From a virus (Duplodnaviria; Caudoviricetes): 25,003 nucleotides of DNA. Positions within the stretch are counted from its first letter, which is position 1, and every line of letters begins with the position of its first letter. Below the pieces are notes generated by a model. It worked only from the letters and a program-made list of their open reading frames with translations, was not told the origin of the DNA and ran no database searches. The stretch lies in IMG/VR virus record IMGVR_UViG_3300042891_000381, positions 1 through 25,003 of that record; one strand, written 5' to 3'. Position numbers and translations under genes: made by a program. Shown piece after piece: positions 14,482-22,232 of this stretch.

Positions 14482-14694
14482 ATGAAATTGAAGATTCAAG
14501 GAACTAAATTTTCTCGTGACCTAAACAATATGGCTGTATTGTGTAATGACAAATCAGAAGTCACAAGATATGAATCTGAGATGAGGAAATATAGAGAAAA
14601 TCAGATTAGAGATGAGGAAATAAATAAACTTAAGAACGAGATCTCAGAAATTAAAGAGATGCTTCAGATCTTGATCAGAGGACAAAATGGCTAA
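14482..14694 (+). CDS. Small hypothetical protein with C-terminal coiled coil
   Basis: 70 aa. The pattern KIQGTKFSRD....AV...EEINKLKNEISEIKEMLQIL resembles small ORFs I recall at this position in T4-like aquatic phages. It overlaps the next gene. Confidence 0.7.
   Translation: MKLKIQGTKFSRDLNNMAVLCNDKSEVTRYESEMRKYRENQIRDEEINKLKNEISEIKEMLQILIRGQNG
14619..14626 (+). promoter_or_regulatory. Possible T4-type late promoter (AATAAATA)
   Basis: One mismatch from TATAAATA, about 60 nt upstream of the fibre gene start at 14687. It lies inside an AT-rich CDS, so it could be chance. Confidence 0.35.
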
Positions 14695-17236
14695 CGCAAA
14701 TATATCTGTTATTGCAGTTACGAACACATTCGATGAATGGCGTACACGCACAAATGATCTGGTTGTAGATCGAAACATTCTTCGCAATCACCCATATGTA
14801 AAAGACAACTCTAATTTTACAATCGCCAATGGCGCTGTTGTTATTGACCGCTCTGGTGGTGGTACGCTGTTAACCGTTGGTTCTGGTGGTGATGCCATTG
14901 TTGGTGGTACAACAACCACATCAGATCTTATCGTAGGTGATGACGCTTCGGTCGCTAATCAATTATCTGTTACTGGTAACACAGTTATTACTGGTAATCT
15001 TGCTGTTTCTAAAAATACAACCATCTCTCAAAACGCAAATGTTACTGGAACTCTTAACGTTGTTTCAAGATTAGATGTTGTTGGTAACACACAATTATTT
15101 TCTAATCTAACAGTATCTCAAAATTCTACTTTATCTGGAACATTAGGAGTTACAGGAAACACTACACTTTCTTCTAATCTTGCAGTTTCTAAAAACACAA
15201 CAATTAGCCAAAACCTAGCAGTCACTGGAACTGCTGATGTTACTGGTGTTACAACATTAGGTAATACTCTAGATGTAACAGGTAACACTGCACTGTCAAG
15301 CAATTTGTCTGTATCTAAAAATACAGCGATCAGTCAAAACCTAGCAGTTACTGGCACAGCAGCAGTTACTGGGGCAACTACACTCAGCAATACATTAGAT
15401 GTAACTGGAAACACAACCCTTTCAAGTAATCTTGCTGTCTCAAAGAACACTACAATTAGCCAAAATCTAGCAGTTACTGGTACGGCAGCAGTTACTGGTG
15501 CAGTTACATTAAGTAACACATTAGATGTAACTGGAAACACAACGCTTTCAAGTAATCTAGCAGTTTCTAAAAATGCAACTGTCTCGCAAAACGCCACAAT
15601 TTCTGGTACTGCAAACGTAACTGGCGACTTCAAAGTTGGATCCGATAGATTTAATGTAACTGCATCTTCTGGTGATACAACTGTCGCTGGTGATTTAACT
15701 GTATCTGGTGGTGATATTACTTCTACTGCTACAGCAAATCTAGTTAATACAACAACCACAACTTTAAATTTCGGTGGCGCAGCAACTACACTCAATATGG
15801 GTGCATCTAGCGGAACTACAGACGTTAAAAATAATTTAAACGTCACAGGTGATCTTGATGTTGATGGCGGAGACATTACTTCCACTACTACAGCAAATCT
15901 ACTTAATACAACCACAACAACACTAAATTTTGGTGGTGCTGCAACTGCATTAAACATGGGTGCAGCTGCTGGTACAGTGACTGCTGCTGGTGATCTAGTT
16001 GTATCTGGTGGAGACATTACTTCTACTGCTACAGCAAACCTATTAAACACCACGACAACAACACTAAATCTTGGTGGCGCTGCTACAACAGTTGAGATTG
16101 GTGCTGCCTCTGGAACAACAAACATCAACAACAATCTCGATGTTGATGGTGATGTAAACATCGACGGTGGCGATTTAACTGTTTCAACTTCTGCATTTAA
16201 TCTTGCTAATACAACTGCAACAACGGTAAATTTTGCTGGTGCTGCTACGCAGCTAACGATGGGTTCGTTAGTCGGCACAACTAACGTAAGAAATGATTTA
16301 AACGTGGTTGGTGATATTGATGTTGATGGTGGAGATCTTACTGGTCCAGCAACTTTTAATCTTGGAAATACATCGACAACTGCATTAAATGTTGGTGGTG
16401 CTGCTGCTAATGTCGTTCTTGGTTCTCCAACTGGCACTGTAAATGTGCGCAATCAGTTGTATGTGACTGATAATGTGTATATTCCGCAAGGAAAAAACTT
16501 ATTCGCATATTATATTCAAACGTCGTCAACTGAATCGTTCTATATTGAACGTGGTAACGGTGTATTTAAAAACCTCAGTGTTTCAGGTACGTTTACATTA
16601 TCGCAACCATCAGTTACAACTTCTGATAGAATTATTCTAAACGAAGTTCCTACAGCAGCACGCGATGGCTATTTTACTGTTCGCCGTGGATCAGCAACTG
16701 CAAATGCCTCAGTGCAATGGTCAGAAACACTTGGTGTTTGGAGAGCAGGTGGTAGCGACGCAACTCTTAATACAATTATTACAATCGCCAATGTTGTTGA
16801 TTCGTTTACATCTACTAGCCTCGTTAATGTTCCAACTGCAAACTCAGTTCGTTGGGCACTGGCAAGCGGCACATTCGGTGGCACATTAAAGGCATACAAA
16901 GATTCTATCACTGAAGACACGAATGTTACAGGAAGTAAGACAGTAGATTTGTCAGTGTCAAACTGGTATAAACTAACACTCACCAGTACTGCTGGAAACA
17001 GACAAATTACATTTACCAATGCACCTACTTCTGGAACTGGATTTACAGTAACGCTAGTCATTCTTCAAGATGGAACTGGCAGTAAAACACCAACATGGGC
17101 TAACACAATTTACTGGGCAGGTGGGCAAGTTCCTCCTGCAACAACCAGCGCCAGCGCAAGAGATCTTTGGACGTTTACAACATATGATGGCGGATCGACA
17201 TTCATCGGAACACTTGCTGTTAAAGACGCGAGATAA
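14687..17236 (+). CDS. Tail fibre/spike-like protein with beta-repeat shaft and C-terminal domain
   Basis: 849 aa; SD GAGGA. N-terminal TNTFDEWRTRTN attachment-like motif, two families of Thr/Gly/Asn/Val repeats, and a C-terminal domain (TVDLS...LQDGTGSKTPTW..TIYWAGG..P....DLWTFTTYDGG) of a kind common at phage fibre ends. Confidence 0.78.
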   Translation: MANANISVIAVTNTFDEWRTRTNDLVVDRNILRNHPYVKDNSNFTIANGAVVIDRSGGGTLLTVGSGGDAIVGGTTTTSDLIVGDDASVANQLSVTGNTVITGNLAVSKNTTISQNANVTGTLNVVSRLDVVGNTQLFSNLTVSQNSTLSGTLGVTGNTTLSSNLAVSKNTTISQNLAVTGTADVTGVTTLGNTLDVTGNTALSSNLSVSKNTAISQNLAVTGTAAVTGATTLSNTLDVTGNTTLSSNLAVSKNTTISQNLAVTGTAAVTGAVTLSNTLDVTGNTTLSSNLAVSKNATVSQNATISGTANVTGDFKVGSDRFNVTASSGDTTVAGDLTVSGGDITSTATANLVNTTTTTLNFGGAATTLNMGASSGTTDVKNNLNVTGDLDVDGGDITSTTTANLLNTTTTTLNFGGAATALNMGAAAGTVTAAGDLVVSGGDITSTATANLLNTTTTTLNLGGAATTVEIGAASGTTNINNNLDVDGDVNIDGGDLTVSTSAFNLANTTATTVNFAGAATQLTMGSLVGTTNVRNDLNVVGDIDVDGGDLTGPATFNLGNTSTTALNVGGAAANVVLGSPTGTVNVRNQLYVTDNVYIPQGKNLFAYYIQTSSTESFYIERGNGVFKNLSVSGTFTLSQPSVTTSDRIILNEVPTAARDGYFTVRRGSATANASVQWSETLGVWRAGGSDATLNTIITIANVVDSFTSTSLVNVPTANSVRWALASGTFGGTLKAYKDSITEDTNVTGSKTVDLSVSNWYKLTLTSTAGNRQITFTNAPTSGTGFTVTLVILQDGTGSKTPTWANTIYWAGGQVPPATTSASARDLWTFTTYDGGSTFIGTLAVKDAR
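14970..15625 (+). repeat. Coding tandem repeats with a 42-aa (126-nt) period
   Basis: Unit TGNTTLSSNLAVSKNTTISQNLAVTGTAAVTGxxTLSNTLDV. The DNA ttagatgtaactggaaacacaac occurs at 15395 and 15521. Boundaries are approximate. Confidence 0.85.
15685..16450 (+). repeat. Second coding repeat family (GGDITST.TANLLNTTTTTLNFGGAAT.LNMGA..GT), about 5 copies
   Basis: Read directly from the translation. Unit length varies at around 45-55 aa; boundaries are approximate. Confidence 0.8.
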
Positions 17237-17238
17237 TT

Positions 17239-19068
17239 ATGCCTCGTAGTTTTGATTTAAATAAAACATGGATTCCTGGGTCTTCCAGAGGAACTACCAC
17301 ATTCAATGCCAGTGGCAATATTAATATTGCTTATGGTAGAAACAAAACATCAGTGAGTGGTCGCGGTGGTTCTGGTGTTGCACCATCATATAACACAGTA
17401 ACAAATTATCCGTATACAGCAGCAAGTTACAACACAGTAACGAATTATCCATACACACCTGTCAGTTATCCGTTTGTTCCTGCTTCATACAATACTACTC
17501 CAGCAAGTTACAACACAGTTCCAGCAAGTTACAATACTACTCCAGCAAGTTACAATACTACTCCAGCAAGTTACAACACAGTAACGAATTATCCATATAC
17601 AGCAGTCAGTTACCCATACACACCTGCTAGTTATCCATTTGTGCCTGCAAGTTATAACACAGTTCCAGCAAGTTATAACACGGTAACAAATTACCCATAT
17701 GTAAATGCAAGTTACAACACCGTTCAAAATTATCCATATACACCAGATAGTTATCCGTTTGTACCTGCAAGTTATAACACGGTAACAAATTACCCATATG
17801 TTAATGCACGTTACAACACAGTCACGAACTATCCATATACAGCAGCAAGATATAATACGGTAACAAACTATCCATACACGCCAGTCAGTTATCCGTTTGT
17901 TCCTGCTTCATACAATACTACTCCAGCAAGTTATAACACAGTTCCAGCAAGTTACAACACAGTAACGAACTATCCATATGTACCTGCAAGTTACAATACT
18001 GTTGTTAATTGGAATTCAACACTTTATGAAGAAGTATTCGACGAGCAAAATTATGCATTCTATTCAGCAAGTTATCCAGGCAGCGGATCTGGAACTAGTT
18101 GCCCACCTGATGGTTATGCCGATCTAGGACCACAGATACCTGCAAACACACCACCAAACCCTTATAATTACCCATTTGGATACTACTCGTTTCCGAATTT
18201 TGGTGGATTTCTTTCTGGAGGTTATTTTCTAACTTATTATTCAGTAACATATAGTTGCACAACTAATTATCCATACACACCAGCAAGTTATAATTCTGTA
18301 GTGACGAACTATCCATACACGCCAACAAGTTACCCATACACACCTGTCAGTTATCCGTATGTAAACGCGAGTTACAATACTACTCCAGCAAGTTATAACA
18401 CGGTAACAAATTACCCATATGTAAATGCAAGTTACAACACAGTGACGAACTATCCATTTGTACCTGCAAGTTATAATGCAGCTGTGACAAATTATCCATA
18501 TGTGGCTCCAAGTTATAACATTGTTCCAAGCAGTTATAACATAGTCACTAACTATCCATTTGTACCTGCAAGTTATAATGCAGCTGTGACAAATTATCCG
18601 TATACAGCAGCAAGTTATCCATATGTAAACGCGAGTTACAATACTACTCCAGCAAGTTATAACACAGTTCCAGCAAGTTACAACACAGTAACGAATTATC
18701 CATACACGCCAGTCAGTTACCCTTACACACCAGTCAGTTATCCATATACACCAGTTAGTTATCCATATACACCAGTTAGTTATCCGTATGTAAATGCAAG
18801 TTACAATACTACTCCAGCAAGTTATAATACGGTAACGAATTATCCGTTTGTACCTGCAAGTTATAACACTGTAAACAGTTATCCATATGTTCCTGGAAAC
18901 CCAGGAACACCAACTACAGTTCTTGGTGTATATTTCCCAGGCGGTGGAGTTGGTGCAGTTGCTCCATATGTTTCTGAAACAGTTACAAATTATTGGGATT
19001 ATCCAGACAATGCAACATATCCTGTTGCAGTTCCAACAGGTGGATATATAGTAGTGAAGGTTGAATAA
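17239..19068 (+). CDS. Tyr/Pro/Asn-rich repeat protein with two complementary repeat arms and a central unique domain; putative fibre tip or adhesin
   Basis: 609 aa, starting 2 nt after the fibre gene. Layout: about 49-aa N-terminal cap, 31 repeats, 86-aa unique segment with 2 Cys, 31 repeats, about 58-aa C-terminal cap. The function is inferred from gene context. Confidence 0.75.
   Translation: MPRSFDLNKTWIPGSSRGTTTFNASGNINIAYGRNKTSVSGRGGSGVAPSYNTVTNYPYTAASYNTVTNYPYTPVSYPFVPASYNTTPASYNTVPASYNTTPASYNTTPASYNTVTNYPYTAVSYPYTPASYPFVPASYNTVPASYNTVTNYPYVNASYNTVQNYPYTPDSYPFVPASYNTVTNYPYVNARYNTVTNYPYTAARYNTVTNYPYTPVSYPFVPASYNTTPASYNTVPASYNTVTNYPYVPASYNTVVNWNSTLYEEVFDEQNYAFYSASYPGSGSGTSCPPDGYADLGPQIPANTPPNPYNYPFGYYSFPNFGGFLSGGYFLTYYSVTYSCTTNYPYTPASYNSVVTNYPYTPTSYPYTPVSYPYVNASYNTTPASYNTVTNYPYVNASYNTVTNYPFVPASYNAAVTNYPYVAPSYNIVPSSYNIVTNYPFVPASYNAAVTNYPYTAASYPYVNASYNTTPASYNTVPASYNTVTNYPYTPVSYPYTPVSYPYTPVSYPYTPVSYPYVNASYNTTPASYNTVTNYPFVPASYNTVNSYPYVPGNPGTPTTVLGVYFPGGGVGAVAPYVSETVTNYWDYPDNATYPVAVPTGGYIVVKVE
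17386..18003 (+). repeat. Repeat arm 1: 31 units of 6-7 aa, YN-type or YP-type
   Basis: Unit order NPNPPNNNNNPPPNNPNPPNPNPNPPNNNPN, read from the translation. Confidence 0.95.
18262..18891 (+). repeat. Repeat arm 2: 31 units of 6-7 aa, YN-type or YP-type
   Basis: Unit order PNPPPNNPNPNPNNPNPPNNNPPPPPNNPNP, read from the translation. Confidence 0.95.
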
Positions 19069-19089: not shown

Positions 19090-19112
19090 ATGATTTAAAA
19101 TTGGAGTTTGTT

Positions 19113-19703
19113 ATGCCCACATTTGTAAAATATATTCGCCCATTACCACAATTTTCAATCAACGAAAGTTACTTCACACCAGAAGAAATCGAAAAGATCA
19201 TCGACTTAGAAGAACTACAAACTTTCTCAGAAGGAAAACTTGGTGTAGATAATGGTGGAAAAATCAACAAGGATTATCGAGACAGCGAAATATCCTGGCT
19301 TATTCCATCACCAGAGTCAAAATGGTTGTTTGATAAATTCAGTTGGTTGATGGCTCAAGTGAATCATGCTAATTTTATGTATGATATCGATGGATTTGAT
19401 GCCTTTCAATACACAAAATATAAAGCAAAACAACATTATAATTGGCATTTTGATTGCTTTACTGAGTATCAAAATTATGAACGCAAAATGAGCGCAATAA
19501 TTTTGTTATCTGACCCATCAAAATATGGTGGTGGTGAATTCGAAATAGTTACTGATGGTAACATTGAAAAACCAATATCTCTAAAGCCACCAATCGGATC
19601 CGTTGTATTTTTTGCTTCTTGGATGCCACACAGAGTGGTGCCAGTGAAGTCTGGTGTCCGTAAATCATTAGTTACTTGGATTATGGGTAAGCGATCATGT
19701 TGA
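19113..19703 (+). CDS. 2OG-Fe(II) oxygenase, prolyl 4-hydroxylase-like
   Basis: HxD (YNWHFD), RKMSAIILLS...YGGGEF, distal His (PHRV) and the 2OG-binding RxS (RKSLVTW). Start moved from TTG 19101 to ATG 19113 because GGAG precedes it. Confidence 0.9.
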   Translation: MPTFVKYIRPLPQFSINESYFTPEEIEKIIDLEELQTFSEGKLGVDNGGKINKDYRDSEISWLIPSPESKWLFDKFSWLMAQVNHANFMYDIDGFDAFQYTKYKAKQHYNWHFDCFTEYQNYERKMSAIILLSDPSKYGGGEFEIVTDGNIEKPISLKPPIGSVVFFASWMPHRVVPVKSGVRKSLVTWIMGKRSC

Positions 19704-20437
19704 ATACATTGCGCAATATATTTAAATTTTGGGGTAACGATGTCATTGAGTTTTATTGCCATCCAGATTTAAGTGGTGTGATTCCAGAACCTAAACCAGC
19801 AATAAAATATCTACCAGAATGGTTTAGAATTTTGCCACCAACTCTCCCAGATAAAAGGGATACTATGTTCAATGTTCCTTCAATGAGTGCAAAAAAATGT
19901 TTGCCGTTGATTGATGCAATGTCCCTAGGATATGTAATCCCATTGTGCGGTGATCTTCATGTTCAAGTTGATCCTGATATGACGGAAATTAAAACTCACA
20001 ATCCACCTGGTTTAAAACTTGCTGAATTTCATTCAGTAGATCAATTAGGGGGTGAAAATGCGCCAAGATTTCCATTACATCCGATTAAGTTTGTGAATCA
20101 TTGGATCGTTAAAACTGCTCCTGGTTGGTCAACATTGTTTGTGCCACCAATGAATCATATTGATCAACCATTTACTTGTTTAAGTGGGCTGGTAGATACA
20201 GACAAATATCCAAAAGAAGTTAATTTTCCTGCAATCTGGAATAAGCCTGGTTTTGATGGTATTATTTCTGCAGGAACACCACTAGTAACTGCTATTCCAA
20301 TTAAACGTAATACATTTGATAAAAAACCAAAAATTAGAAAAATGACGGATGACGATTTTAACACTATTGAAACAATTAAAAAGCAACAACACAGTAGAAT
20401 GCATGTTTATACAAATGAATTGAGAGTTAAGAAATGA
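19697..20437 (+). CDS. Conserved phage hypothetical protein (possibly DUF6065-like), paralog 1
   Basis: 246 aa with PKPA...LPEWF, KKCLPLIDAMSLGYVIP, KFVNHWIVKTAPGWSTLF, SGLVDTD and AGTPL..IP. As I recall, this family often sits beside 2OG oxygenases in aquatic phages. The family name is uncertain. Confidence 0.65.
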   Translation: MLNTLRNIFKFWGNDVIEFYCHPDLSGVIPEPKPAIKYLPEWFRILPPTLPDKRDTMFNVPSMSAKKCLPLIDAMSLGYVIPLCGDLHVQVDPDMTEIKTHNPPGLKLAEFHSVDQLGGENAPRFPLHPIKFVNHWIVKTAPGWSTLFVPPMNHIDQPFTCLSGLVDTDKYPKEVNFPAIWNKPGFDGIISAGTPLVTAIPIKRNTFDKKPKIRKMTDDDFNTIETIKKQQHSRMHVYTNELRVKK

Positions 20438-21285
20438 ATCTTTTTAATATTTTTAAATCTAAAAAACCTCTTTATGAATCAACTTCAGTTGAAGAAGAAA
20501 TAGAAGTTTCTAACTCAACAGTAATTCAATCTCCTTTGCAAAAAAATAAACTAGAATTTATTGATTCTTCTGAGTTGGTATTTGCCAGTTTGCCAATCAA
20601 ATTAGCAAAAGATGTTCCAGTCAATTCTAGAAAACATGTTGAGGACCTAGGAAATAAATTTACATTTCCACTATGCCCTGGGATGTTTGATTATTCTAGA
20701 TTAGGATATATTGTTCCGTGTTGGGCAGATTTTCATTTTAAAATAAACAAAGCAGGTTGTATCGCCTATGCTGGGGGTGGTAAACGAAGTTCTCCATTTA
20801 GAGATCCTGTTCCAATGGCTAGTGACATAGTCGATGGTATCTTTAACATTCAAGATGGCATTCCTCTACGACCATTTAATATAAATTCTCCATGGAAAAT
20901 CTTTAGTTATGATAAAGATATTTCAGCGTTAATATTACCTGCATGGTATCATTCAAGTCCAGAATTTCTTGAAAATTTTTATGTTTATCCTGGCATAGTT
21001 GACTATAATACATTTCATACTATGAATGCAATTTTAGCACCAAGAAAAAAATGTGAGTATACAATCAAAGCAGGGGAACCCCTATTGCATGTGATACCGT
21101 TTTACAATAGACACATTGAGTGTGGATACGGTCCACCTAATATCGAACAAAAAAGTATACTCTCATATGATCCAAAAATACATGAGAATCAATTTTATAG
21201 AAAAAACCATAATATTAAAAAAAGTTTTACATTAGATAGAGTGGAAGAAGATCCTAATCAACAACCAAAAGAAGATAAAGAATGA
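20434..21285 (+). CDS. Conserved phage hypothetical protein, paralog 2 of the upstream gene
   Basis: 283 aa. CPGMFDYSRLGYIVP, SPWKI, PGIVDY and IKAGEPLLHVIPF align by eye with the motifs of 19697-20437. ATGA overlaps at both ends. Confidence 0.65.
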   Translation: MNLFNIFKSKKPLYESTSVEEEIEVSNSTVIQSPLQKNKLEFIDSSELVFASLPIKLAKDVPVNSRKHVEDLGNKFTFPLCPGMFDYSRLGYIVPCWADFHFKINKAGCIAYAGGGKRSSPFRDPVPMASDIVDGIFNIQDGIPLRPFNINSPWKIFSYDKDISALILPAWYHSSPEFLENFYVYPGIVDYNTFHTMNAILAPRKKCEYTIKAGEPLLHVIPFYNRHIECGYGPPNIEQKSILSYDPKIHENQFYRKNHNIKKSFTLDRVEEDPNQQPKEDKE

Positions 21286-22232
21286 AAATATTTGTAAGCA
21301 TATGCTCATATAGAGATCCACTGTTAGTTTACACACTAAAATCTCTAATTCAAAGTAAGTCCTCGCTTGCTGAAGTAGTATATGGAATATTCGAACAAAC
21401 AGAAAAAGAAAATAGTTTAGAAACACTGCATCCAGAATTAATATCAAGACCTGATGTAAAGTATAAGAGAATTGACCCACAATATTCTGAGGGCGTTGGG
21501 TGGGCGAGAAACATTAATGCTTTACAATTAACTGATGAGGATTTTTATTATCAAATTGATTCTCACATGGTATTTGATAACAACTGGGATAGGCAACTAA
21601 TTAATGATTACAAAGAGGGCTGTTTAATTGCTAACTCAAATAAAGTAGTCATATCATCTAATTGTAAAAATTTCAATCTCGTCGAAGGACATGTTAAACT
21701 TGAGCACAATAAAAATGTTGCTTGTATAGCCAAATTTTATCAATTTGATAAAAGTCTTTCGTTATTTGCTCACGGCGAACATACCAATCCAACTACTAGT
21801 GTTATGCCAGCCAGCCATATTTTTGCAGGCAACATGTTCACTCATGCAGATTGGATTAATAATGTTGGGATAAATCCAAAAATCTTTTTTCATGGGGAAG
21901 AACAAATTATGGTTCTTTCTTCGTTTATGGTTGGCTATTCAATCTTTCACGGTAAACAGATTAATTGTTACCATTATATTGGATCTAATCAACATACTTC
22001 TAAACAGGACTATAATCCTATAGTCTCAGATGAAGTTATACAAGAAAGAAAATATAGATCAGATTTAGAATTTAGACGGTTCATTGATTCTGTGGACGAC
22101 GTAGTCTTTGAGGAGTTTAGGCGCTACTCTGGAGTCGATTACATAAACAGAAAGATTGAAAAACGTGCTTTGACAAACGCAATTAAACCAAATATCGAAG
22201 TCGATTGGGTAATCCCAGATAAAACGGACTAA
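21282..22232 (+). CDS. GlcNAc transferase, Gnt1/GT60-like (GT-A fold)
   Basis: 316 aa with IFVSICSYRD, GVGWAR, YYQIDSHMVF..NWD (DSH metal motif), FAGNMF and IFFHGEE. These match the motif pattern of Skp1-hydroxyproline GlcNAc transferase-like enzymes. Confidence 0.85.
   Translation: MKIFVSICSYRDPLLVYTLKSLIQSKSSLAEVVYGIFEQTEKENSLETLHPELISRPDVKYKRIDPQYSEGVGWARNINALQLTDEDFYYQIDSHMVFDNNWDRQLINDYKEGCLIANSNKVVISSNCKNFNLVEGHVKLEHNKNVACIAKFYQFDKSLSLFAHGEHTNPTTSVMPASHIFAGNMFTHADWINNVGINPKIFFHGEEQIMVLSSFMVGYSIFHGKQINCYHYIGSNQHTSKQDYNPIVSDEVIQERKYRSDLEFRRFIDSVDDVVFEEFRRYSGVDYINRKIEKRALTNAIKPNIEVDWVIPDKTD

Follow-up and report, generated by a model that had tools for sequence, protein, structure and literature searches.

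The window analysed here is the whole 25-kb stretch (25,003 nucleotides), a single contig of an uncultured T4-like phage, and lake water metagenome is the label of 24/24 listed runs containing its sequence. Its gene order runs from baseplate wedge genes through large virion proteins and a tail-fibre-like gene to an ORF for a protein of 609 amino acids. This ORF is followed by a 2OG-Fe(II) oxygenase, two DUF6065/phrog_7084 genes, a PF11397 GlcNAc transferase and an LtfC-like gene (Table 1). Judging from sequence and position, the product of the upstream gene is likely the attachment partner of the 609-aa protein. In most loci that have upstream DNA, the C-terminal domain of this fibre gene precedes the family gene. 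The fibre itself (849 aa) bears internal repeats of its own, with periods of about 38 and 41 residues by eye; in relatives its length is very variable (347 aa in L013) and its C-terminal domain conserved. On the other side, the oxygenase, the two DUF6065-like genes and the transferase trail the family gene in most loci, among them L029, L031, L033, L034 and L035 besides the window. Some loci (L018, L019, L022, L027, L028) carry a tandem pair of complete family genes, and where there are two paralogs each has a separate oxygenase.

Table 1. Genes and features of the locus, in window coordinates.
Feature	Position	Strand	Basis or remark
Upstream tail-fibre-like gene	14687..17236	+	phrog_7760/9017 tail fiber matches at aa 717-845
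609-aa repeat protein P0001, putatively fold-back	17239..19068	+	ORF
Base domain, N-terminal half, aa 1-50	17239..17388	+	Invariant columns in 38 relatives; predicted to fold with C-half, pLDDT 70-90, in P0026
Arm 1, 31 YN/YP units, aa 51-257	17389..18009	+	Unit parse
Span of arm-1 junctions YPFVPAS x4 (17467, 17632, 17752, 17890) and YPYVNA x2 (17692, 17791)	17467..17910	+	
Atypical arm-1 units 17-18, YNTVQN YPYTPDS	17713..17751	+	Face YNIVTN and YNIVPSS
Variable tip, aa 258-343, Cys288 and Cys340	18010..18267	+	Cysteines; tips unlike in near-identical relatives, e.g. P0007/P0008/P0011
Arm 2, 31 YN/YP units, aa 344-553	18268..18897	+	Unit parse
Span of arm-2 junctions YPFVPAS x3 (18451, 18553, 18841)	18352..18861	+	
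YPYVNAS junctions x4 in the same arm-2 span (18352, 18412, 18616, 18781)	18352..18861	+	
Atypical arm-2 units 12-14, YPYVAPS YNIVPSS YNIVTN	18493..18552	+	Identical in L050
Base domain, C-terminal half, aa 554-609	18898..19065	+	Conserved across relatives; model of P0026
Downstream cassette: 2OG-Fe(II) oxygenase, two DUF6065/phrog_7084 proteins, PF11397 GlcNAc transferase	19101..22232	+	Kept after family gene

The 609-aa protein has no Pfam match at E<=1 and no PHROG match, and a comparison with PDB sequences gave nothing below E 0.76. Likewise, no usable match came from the ESM Atlas, no match from GenBank phages queried with the C-terminal half of the base, and no family relative from the GTDB genomes searched. 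By sequence searches, the family amounts to 46 distinct complete proteins. In the window protein, two repeat arms and a tip lie between the halves of a base domain. Seven residues (Tyr, Thr, Pro, Asn, Val, Ser and Ala) account for 403 of the 417 residues of the arms, whose spans come to 201 and 204 residues. The protein holds 0 His, and an LPxTG motif, which was looked for, is not present. In run X21, strain differences are concentrated in the tip (18118-18123 and 18219-18242), and the stretches of the arms that were covered show no such cluster.

The order of the two unit types, YN and YP (N and P below), is mirrored between the arms. Arm 2 read backwards with N and P exchanged is the same as arm 1 at 31/31 units; the run-length shuffle null for this order is 2.8e-6, and the next-best antiparallel offsets reach 18/24. 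The units themselves keep one orientation, and it is their order that is reversed and their type that is switched. A DNA inverted repeat joining arm 1 to arm 2 was searched for and none was found. Over arm 1, the overlapping contigs from run X1 agree without a difference, and none of them spans the gene. Matched arm deletions were sought in strains from six public runs and none was seen; as contigs break in the repeats, none is excluded either. In L050, which has the same tip as the window protein, arm 2 has 22 inner units against 30, and arm 1 lies off the contig.

A preliminary description had gone beyond this first-order order and read the linkers of facing units as a code of more than two letters. 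In the facing register i/(32-i), with 31 Tyr-started units per arm, our recount reproduces its figures: 7 of the 9 facing P-to-N pairs have YPFVPA on exactly one side, and in the window protein its partners are YPYVNA five times, YPYTAA once, YPYVAP once and FVPA never. The N-to-P junctions do face N-to-P junctions (9/9), because the first-order complement already forces such facing. Three of those in arm 2 are, as described, 7 residues long (YNSVVTN once, YNAAVTN twice), and their three extra residues have no partner and form unmatched bulges. In L051, 6 residues stand against 7 in 3/3 inner pairs, and thus such facing may be a tolerated type.

The weight of the FVPA pattern is another matter. 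FVPA occurs four times in arm 1 and three times in arm 2, and with these totals the absence of an FVPA-FVPA pair has a one-sided Fisher p of 0.12. The number of FVPA-YVNA pairs gives a permutation p of 0.036, for a pair chosen post hoc. In arm 1, FVPA is found exactly where the preceding unit is P-type, and in arm 2 only in the context N[PN]P. Shuffling within the local N/P context always reproduces 7/9 (conditional p=1.0), because the position of FVPA is set by its N/P neighbours within its own arm. In addition, the five FVPA-YVNA pairs come down to two repeated block types (3+2). The flip of the context rule between arms is what pairing would predict, yet it amounts to only two events. Tabulated across homologs, the exclusion of FVPA by FVPA does not hold as a rule, since the two face each other in L002, L004 and L053, where they constitute one inherited pair. 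The FVPA/YVNA pairing of the window protein is probably a single tolerated block type that was copied several times and no general rule, and we rather doubt that this pairing itself was selected.

The facing of atypical units that had been pointed out comes down to two adjacent pairs (17/14, YNTVQN-YNIVTN; and 18/13, YPYTPDS-YNIVPSS); arm-1 unit 19 and arm-2 unit 15 are ordinary YPFVPAS. A matching of singletons with singletons is not significant (p=0.29) and was rejected. Mutual information summed over the four junction classes, with shuffles within class, has p=0.006, which changes to 0.023 without pairs 17 and 18 and to 0.056 with both flanks held. This whole-protein signal is modest, a hint and not a proof. 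A further candidate, a tendency of canonical YPYTPVS to face YNTT over YNTV/YNIV (6/1/1/4, p=0.045), was set aside as post hoc.

Besides the window protein, four family proteins are built on YN/YP units. In L002, L004 and L053 the two types alternate strictly, and the junction lengths are matched in 25/25, 23/23 and 21/21 cases. In these three, Phe at position 3 tends toward Phe on the opposite arm (8/2/2/11 in 23 distinct pairs that are not independent, p=0.003; p=0.013 in L004 alone). For the same proteins, a rule that acid never stands opposite acid was tried and rejected, as 0/23 such pairs still corresponds to p=0.26. In L007, YPYTAAV lies opposite YPYVSGES in 7/7 pairs with one swap between the arms (p=0.14 for the swap by itself). 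N-to-P linkers, long or short, mirror each other in 7/7. Further YN/YP relatives with non-periodic order were sought, and only L050 was found.

The same base carries quite different repeats, with base domain identity of 50-84% across ten representatives. For instance, L006 has 14+14 units, every one of 14 residues, and SGG is opposite PTA in 8/8 cases, three with SGG in arm 1 and five with it in arm 2. Only 5 of 200,000 shuffles reached this count, and the controls gave at most 5 off-register and at most 4 in parallel register. In six proteins with a glycine-based alphabet (G-code), of 35-43 units per arm and equal arm counts within each, exactly one Gly is present at position 4 in 227/233 facing pairs, on the arm-1 side in 101. 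The six exceptions are one conserved Pro-Pro pair, and 0 of 20,000 length-preserving shuffles matched the rule in each of the six proteins. In this group F[TS]PG is also opposite YNxP in 12/12. Duplications are matched in facing blocks; thus L034 differs from L033 by three units (23 residues) added in each arm, at facing sites.

In a further group (Y/P), Tyr 4-mers are opposite Pro 5-mers in reverse-complement order, with 54/54, 52/52, 43/43 and 40/40 units in agreement. Second-order counts for this group retain 13 of the 17 parsed proteins, with L019_2387 and L028_6099 left out for parser breaks and P0016 and P0027 for unequal arms. Over 136 distinct blocks, Ile at position 3 is opposite PExxR in 81/81 and Thr/Ser is opposite non-PE in 51/51, with Val splitting 3:1. 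The next residue pairs Leu with Ser (28/28), Thr with Gly (16/16) and Asn with Ala/Asn/Thr (37/39). Shuffles within protein, arm and run length reached this in 0/5000 for L019_4224 and gave p=0.0002 for L022_4227; other best cases have p=0.005 and 0.008, and several short proteins show nothing. Protein by protein, rule A has p=1.0 in 4/13 and rule B has p>0.05 in 6/13, one of these six having no testable block. P0016 and P0027, with their very unequal arms (26 against 11 and 8 against 21 parsed units), may be true exceptions to the pattern, products of collapse during assembly or proteins that partner a second chain.

Finally, P0014 and L025 (3992-5560) have arms without regular repeats, in which cysteines are mirrored 11:11 and 10:10. 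Their distances from the base are mirrored too (spacing-order p=0.0003 and 0.0016; mean-offset p=0.04 and 0.09), and a cross-arm disulfide ladder is predicted from this arrangement. For all these groups, the pairing rules were first noticed in the data and their counts then taken from the same proteins and their relatives, the members of a lineage share history, and the independent lineages number about 4-5. The second-order counts leave out the P0002-type and P0004-type proteins and L040.

In effect, the two parts of the original proposal have separated. Across homologs, linker covariation takes the form of strict, two-way second-order rules and of swaps between arms in four other lineages, and the FVPA rule is broken. 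Mirrored matching, for the most part of unlike letters, is seen at two or three levels. Support for compensatory changes and for a code with over two letters comes from the relatives and not from the FVPA pattern. The proposal is partly supported, wrong in its example from the window and right in its idea of a multi-letter code; the FVPA example adds little, and it is the family-wide rules that carry weight.

Unrelated tips sit on near-identical stalks (P0002, P0003, P0007, P0008, P0011, P0013; L027 against L028), and similar tips recur across different stalk alphabets; from the sequences, tip exchange appears to be through recombination. There is also a split form (P0028, P0029), in which the N-terminal half of the base, arms and tip are followed by a Hint domain (PF01079) that replaces the C-terminal half. 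In L031 (2-1000, 1000-2385) and L033 (3-839, 839-2389) the Hint-ending ORF adjoins a gene with only the C-terminal half and two tip-like segments. As the former directly precedes the latter, it probably takes two chains to complete the base at these loci.

Structure prediction informs mainly about the base. AlphaFold2 gave a pLDDT of 29 for the window protein alone. For P0026, with an alignment of 38 rows, it placed the N- and C-terminal ends in one beta domain (pLDDT 70-90), with strands 51-57 and 322-328 at the entry to the stalk and further strands within the tip. The arms of P0026 stayed at pLDDT 25-35, with no arm fold resolved. The ends are thus predicted to form one beta-sandwich base. 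Foldseek searches of viral models with this domain gave nothing at E<=0.001, and a match to a "Glycine-rich domain-containing protein" came at E 0.14 only. The best solved-structure match by VIA-align has Z 5.4, rmsd 3.1 and 86 aligned residues, among many tied beta-sandwiches. This match is not decisive, and the base domain may at most be a candidate relative of the Gly-rich domain proteins (Pfam Gly_rich_2).

The best reading of these observations is a swappable tip on a fold-back adhesin stalk with a multi-letter pairing code. More precisely, we give a probability of roughly 0.8 to the ORF being a phage tail-region protein whose arms fold back as an antiparallel stalk, with the register set by complementary, mostly unlike facing units. 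Physical pairing of the arms is the likely cause of the linker covariation, as far as sequence can tell. The chain would run out along arm 1, turn at the small tip with its cysteine pair and return along arm 2. The Tyr of a YN unit would pack onto the Pro of the facing YP unit, and Asn side chains may compensate for the absent NH of Pro. Steric fit would decide which letters stand between these anchors (Gly against large, Thr against Gly, Leu against Ser), such that a change or duplication in one arm would be kept only if matched on the opposite one. Placing Tyr of YN opposite Pro of YP would be one register that fits both the YN/YP and Y/P groups. This register would put position 5 of the P-to-N junctions (Pro/Asn, Pro/Ala, Pro/Pro) on a local dyad and would set Phe3 against Ser7, not against Tyr3. 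With about 200 residues per arm, the stalk could reach up to about 60-65 nm if extended. Mounted at the end of the upstream-encoded tail fibre, it would present its variable tip to a receptor on the host. Because tips differ among near-identical relatives and the gene follows a tail-fibre gene, the protein likely acts in receptor binding. As for the downstream cassette, the oxygenase and the GlcNAc transferase might hydroxylate proline and transfer GlcNAc on the stalk, a candidate modification that we take to be comparable to the Skp1 pathway. A literature search returned no paper joining all the elements of this Skp1-like idea.

There are parallels to this architecture in known adhesins. In the streptococcal antigen I/II proteins SpaP and BspA, two repeat regions flanking a variable domain intertwine as a stalk and the terminal domains lock the base (PMC7732690). 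SpaP interlocks Tyr with PxxP pockets, while BspA has an Asn seam (PMC7732690). The 609-aa protein has Tyr, Pro and Asn anchors also, and the covariation between its arms hints at an intertwined Tyr-Pro stalk in the style of antigen I/II. By contrast, antigen I/II has Ala-rich repeats throughout one arm and Pro-rich repeats throughout the other, and thus there is no order code, whereas here each arm combines YN with YP units, in an order that is the reverse complement of the other arm's. Moreover, the phage protein is the product of a phage structural gene, with neither homology to antigen I/II nor its LPxTG.

The second parallel is with T4-like tail tips. The gp37 needle has His-based metal sites along its length, and gp38 has glycine-rich motifs. 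In the account of gp37 excerpted from its source, the chain at the tip of the T4 long tail fibre extends to a variable region that sets specificity and then returns antiparallel, with conserved flanks and a divergent centre. This tip, about 215 residues long, ends the long fibre as a needle of six strands from three chains (PMC9659904). Of such an out-and-back chain, the P0026 model shows the termini folded together but no fold for the arms. The differences are that repeats with mirrored order are absent from the excerpted description of gp37 (PMC9659904) and that the 609-aa protein lacks His. The Gp38 adhesins of Straboviridae are, in the part of the source that treats them, modular receptor-binding proteins of the distal tail, encoded by a separate gene directly after the tail-fibre gene (PMC12032242). 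The family gene is also directly downstream of a tail-fibre gene, in conserved order, but it has no Pfam/PHROG family match and the window protein has long Tyr/Pro/Asn arms. In short, the protein resembles antigen I/II and the gp37 needle in how it would work and is a member of neither; with gp38 it shares gene position alone.

Several other explanations of the mirrored arms have to be weighed. The strongest of them, although we think it a minority possibility, is that the pairing takes place between chains, as a domain-swapped dimer or a gp37-like trimeric needle, so that the code is real but intermolecular; at the level of sequence this is compatible with the best explanation. The tail-fibre-like nature of the upstream gene, the three-chain, six-stranded antiparallel needle in the excerpted account of gp37 (PMC9659904) and the split two-gene form, with base halves on separate chains, all agree with it. 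It sits less well with the lack of His, which leaves no metal sites of the gp37 type, and with the P0026 model, in which one chain suffices to complete the base. A different and improbable explanation accepts pairing of the arms and lets selection act on coarse length and N/P pattern only, with the finer letters hitchhiking in co-duplicated facing blocks. This accounts fully for the window protein, where two block types were copied three and two times, codons are shared between copies and the conditional p is 1.0, and it suits the facing of FVPA by FVPA in relatives. Nevertheless, in L006 the units are alike in length and type, so that any duplication restores the coarse pattern, and yet SGG/PTA holds in 8/8 with arm swaps. 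The Gly/non-Gly and the Leu-Ser/Thr-Gly rules also persist under shuffles that preserve the coarse pattern.

Still further from the preferred reading is the view of the arms as disordered spacers matched in length only, which the low-complexity composition and low pLDDT would allow. We consider it very unlikely, as length matching would need neither unit-by-unit complementarity nor mirrored cysteines. Least probable of all is a mirror order that arose at the DNA level (hairpin, conversion between arms) or as an assembly artefact, with no pairing in the protein. Near-identical 21-bp units are common to both arms, and none of the contigs compared spans the whole repeat region. However, there is no inverted repeat between the arms, and unit orientation is constant while order is reversed and type switched. 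The agreement of the run X1 contigs over arm 1, and the recurrence of the same logic in other lineages and assemblies with unrelated alphabets, argue against an artefact.

Returning to antiparallel pairing of the arms by a code, a wider proposal can be made for the family, which we favour with less assurance than the fold-back stalk itself. These proteins would be stem-loop adhesins whose arms zip antiparallel by a residue-level, multi-letter code, repeatedly rewritten on a single base (YN/YP, Tyr 4-mer/Pro 5-mer, Gly/non-Gly, SGG/PTA and Cys/Cys), with compensatory changes as in RNA stems. Such a protein could be divided between two genes, with a Hint domain, and the oxygenase and GlcNAc transferase encoded next to it would perhaps take part in its maturation. 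Fold-back stalks as such are already known from antigen I/II and the gp37 needle. What appears to be new is that the register can be read as a reverse-complement code, one that exists in several independent alphabets and shows compensatory swaps; in the literature, searched mostly at the level of abstracts, no description of a reverse-complement pairing code in proteins was found. If the arms pair, the family would offer rules, taken from nature, for programming the pairing of peptide strands and for rods of tunable length. It would also provide a test on which AlphaFold2 fails and, in an uncultured group of lake phages, a modular scaffold for receptor binding.
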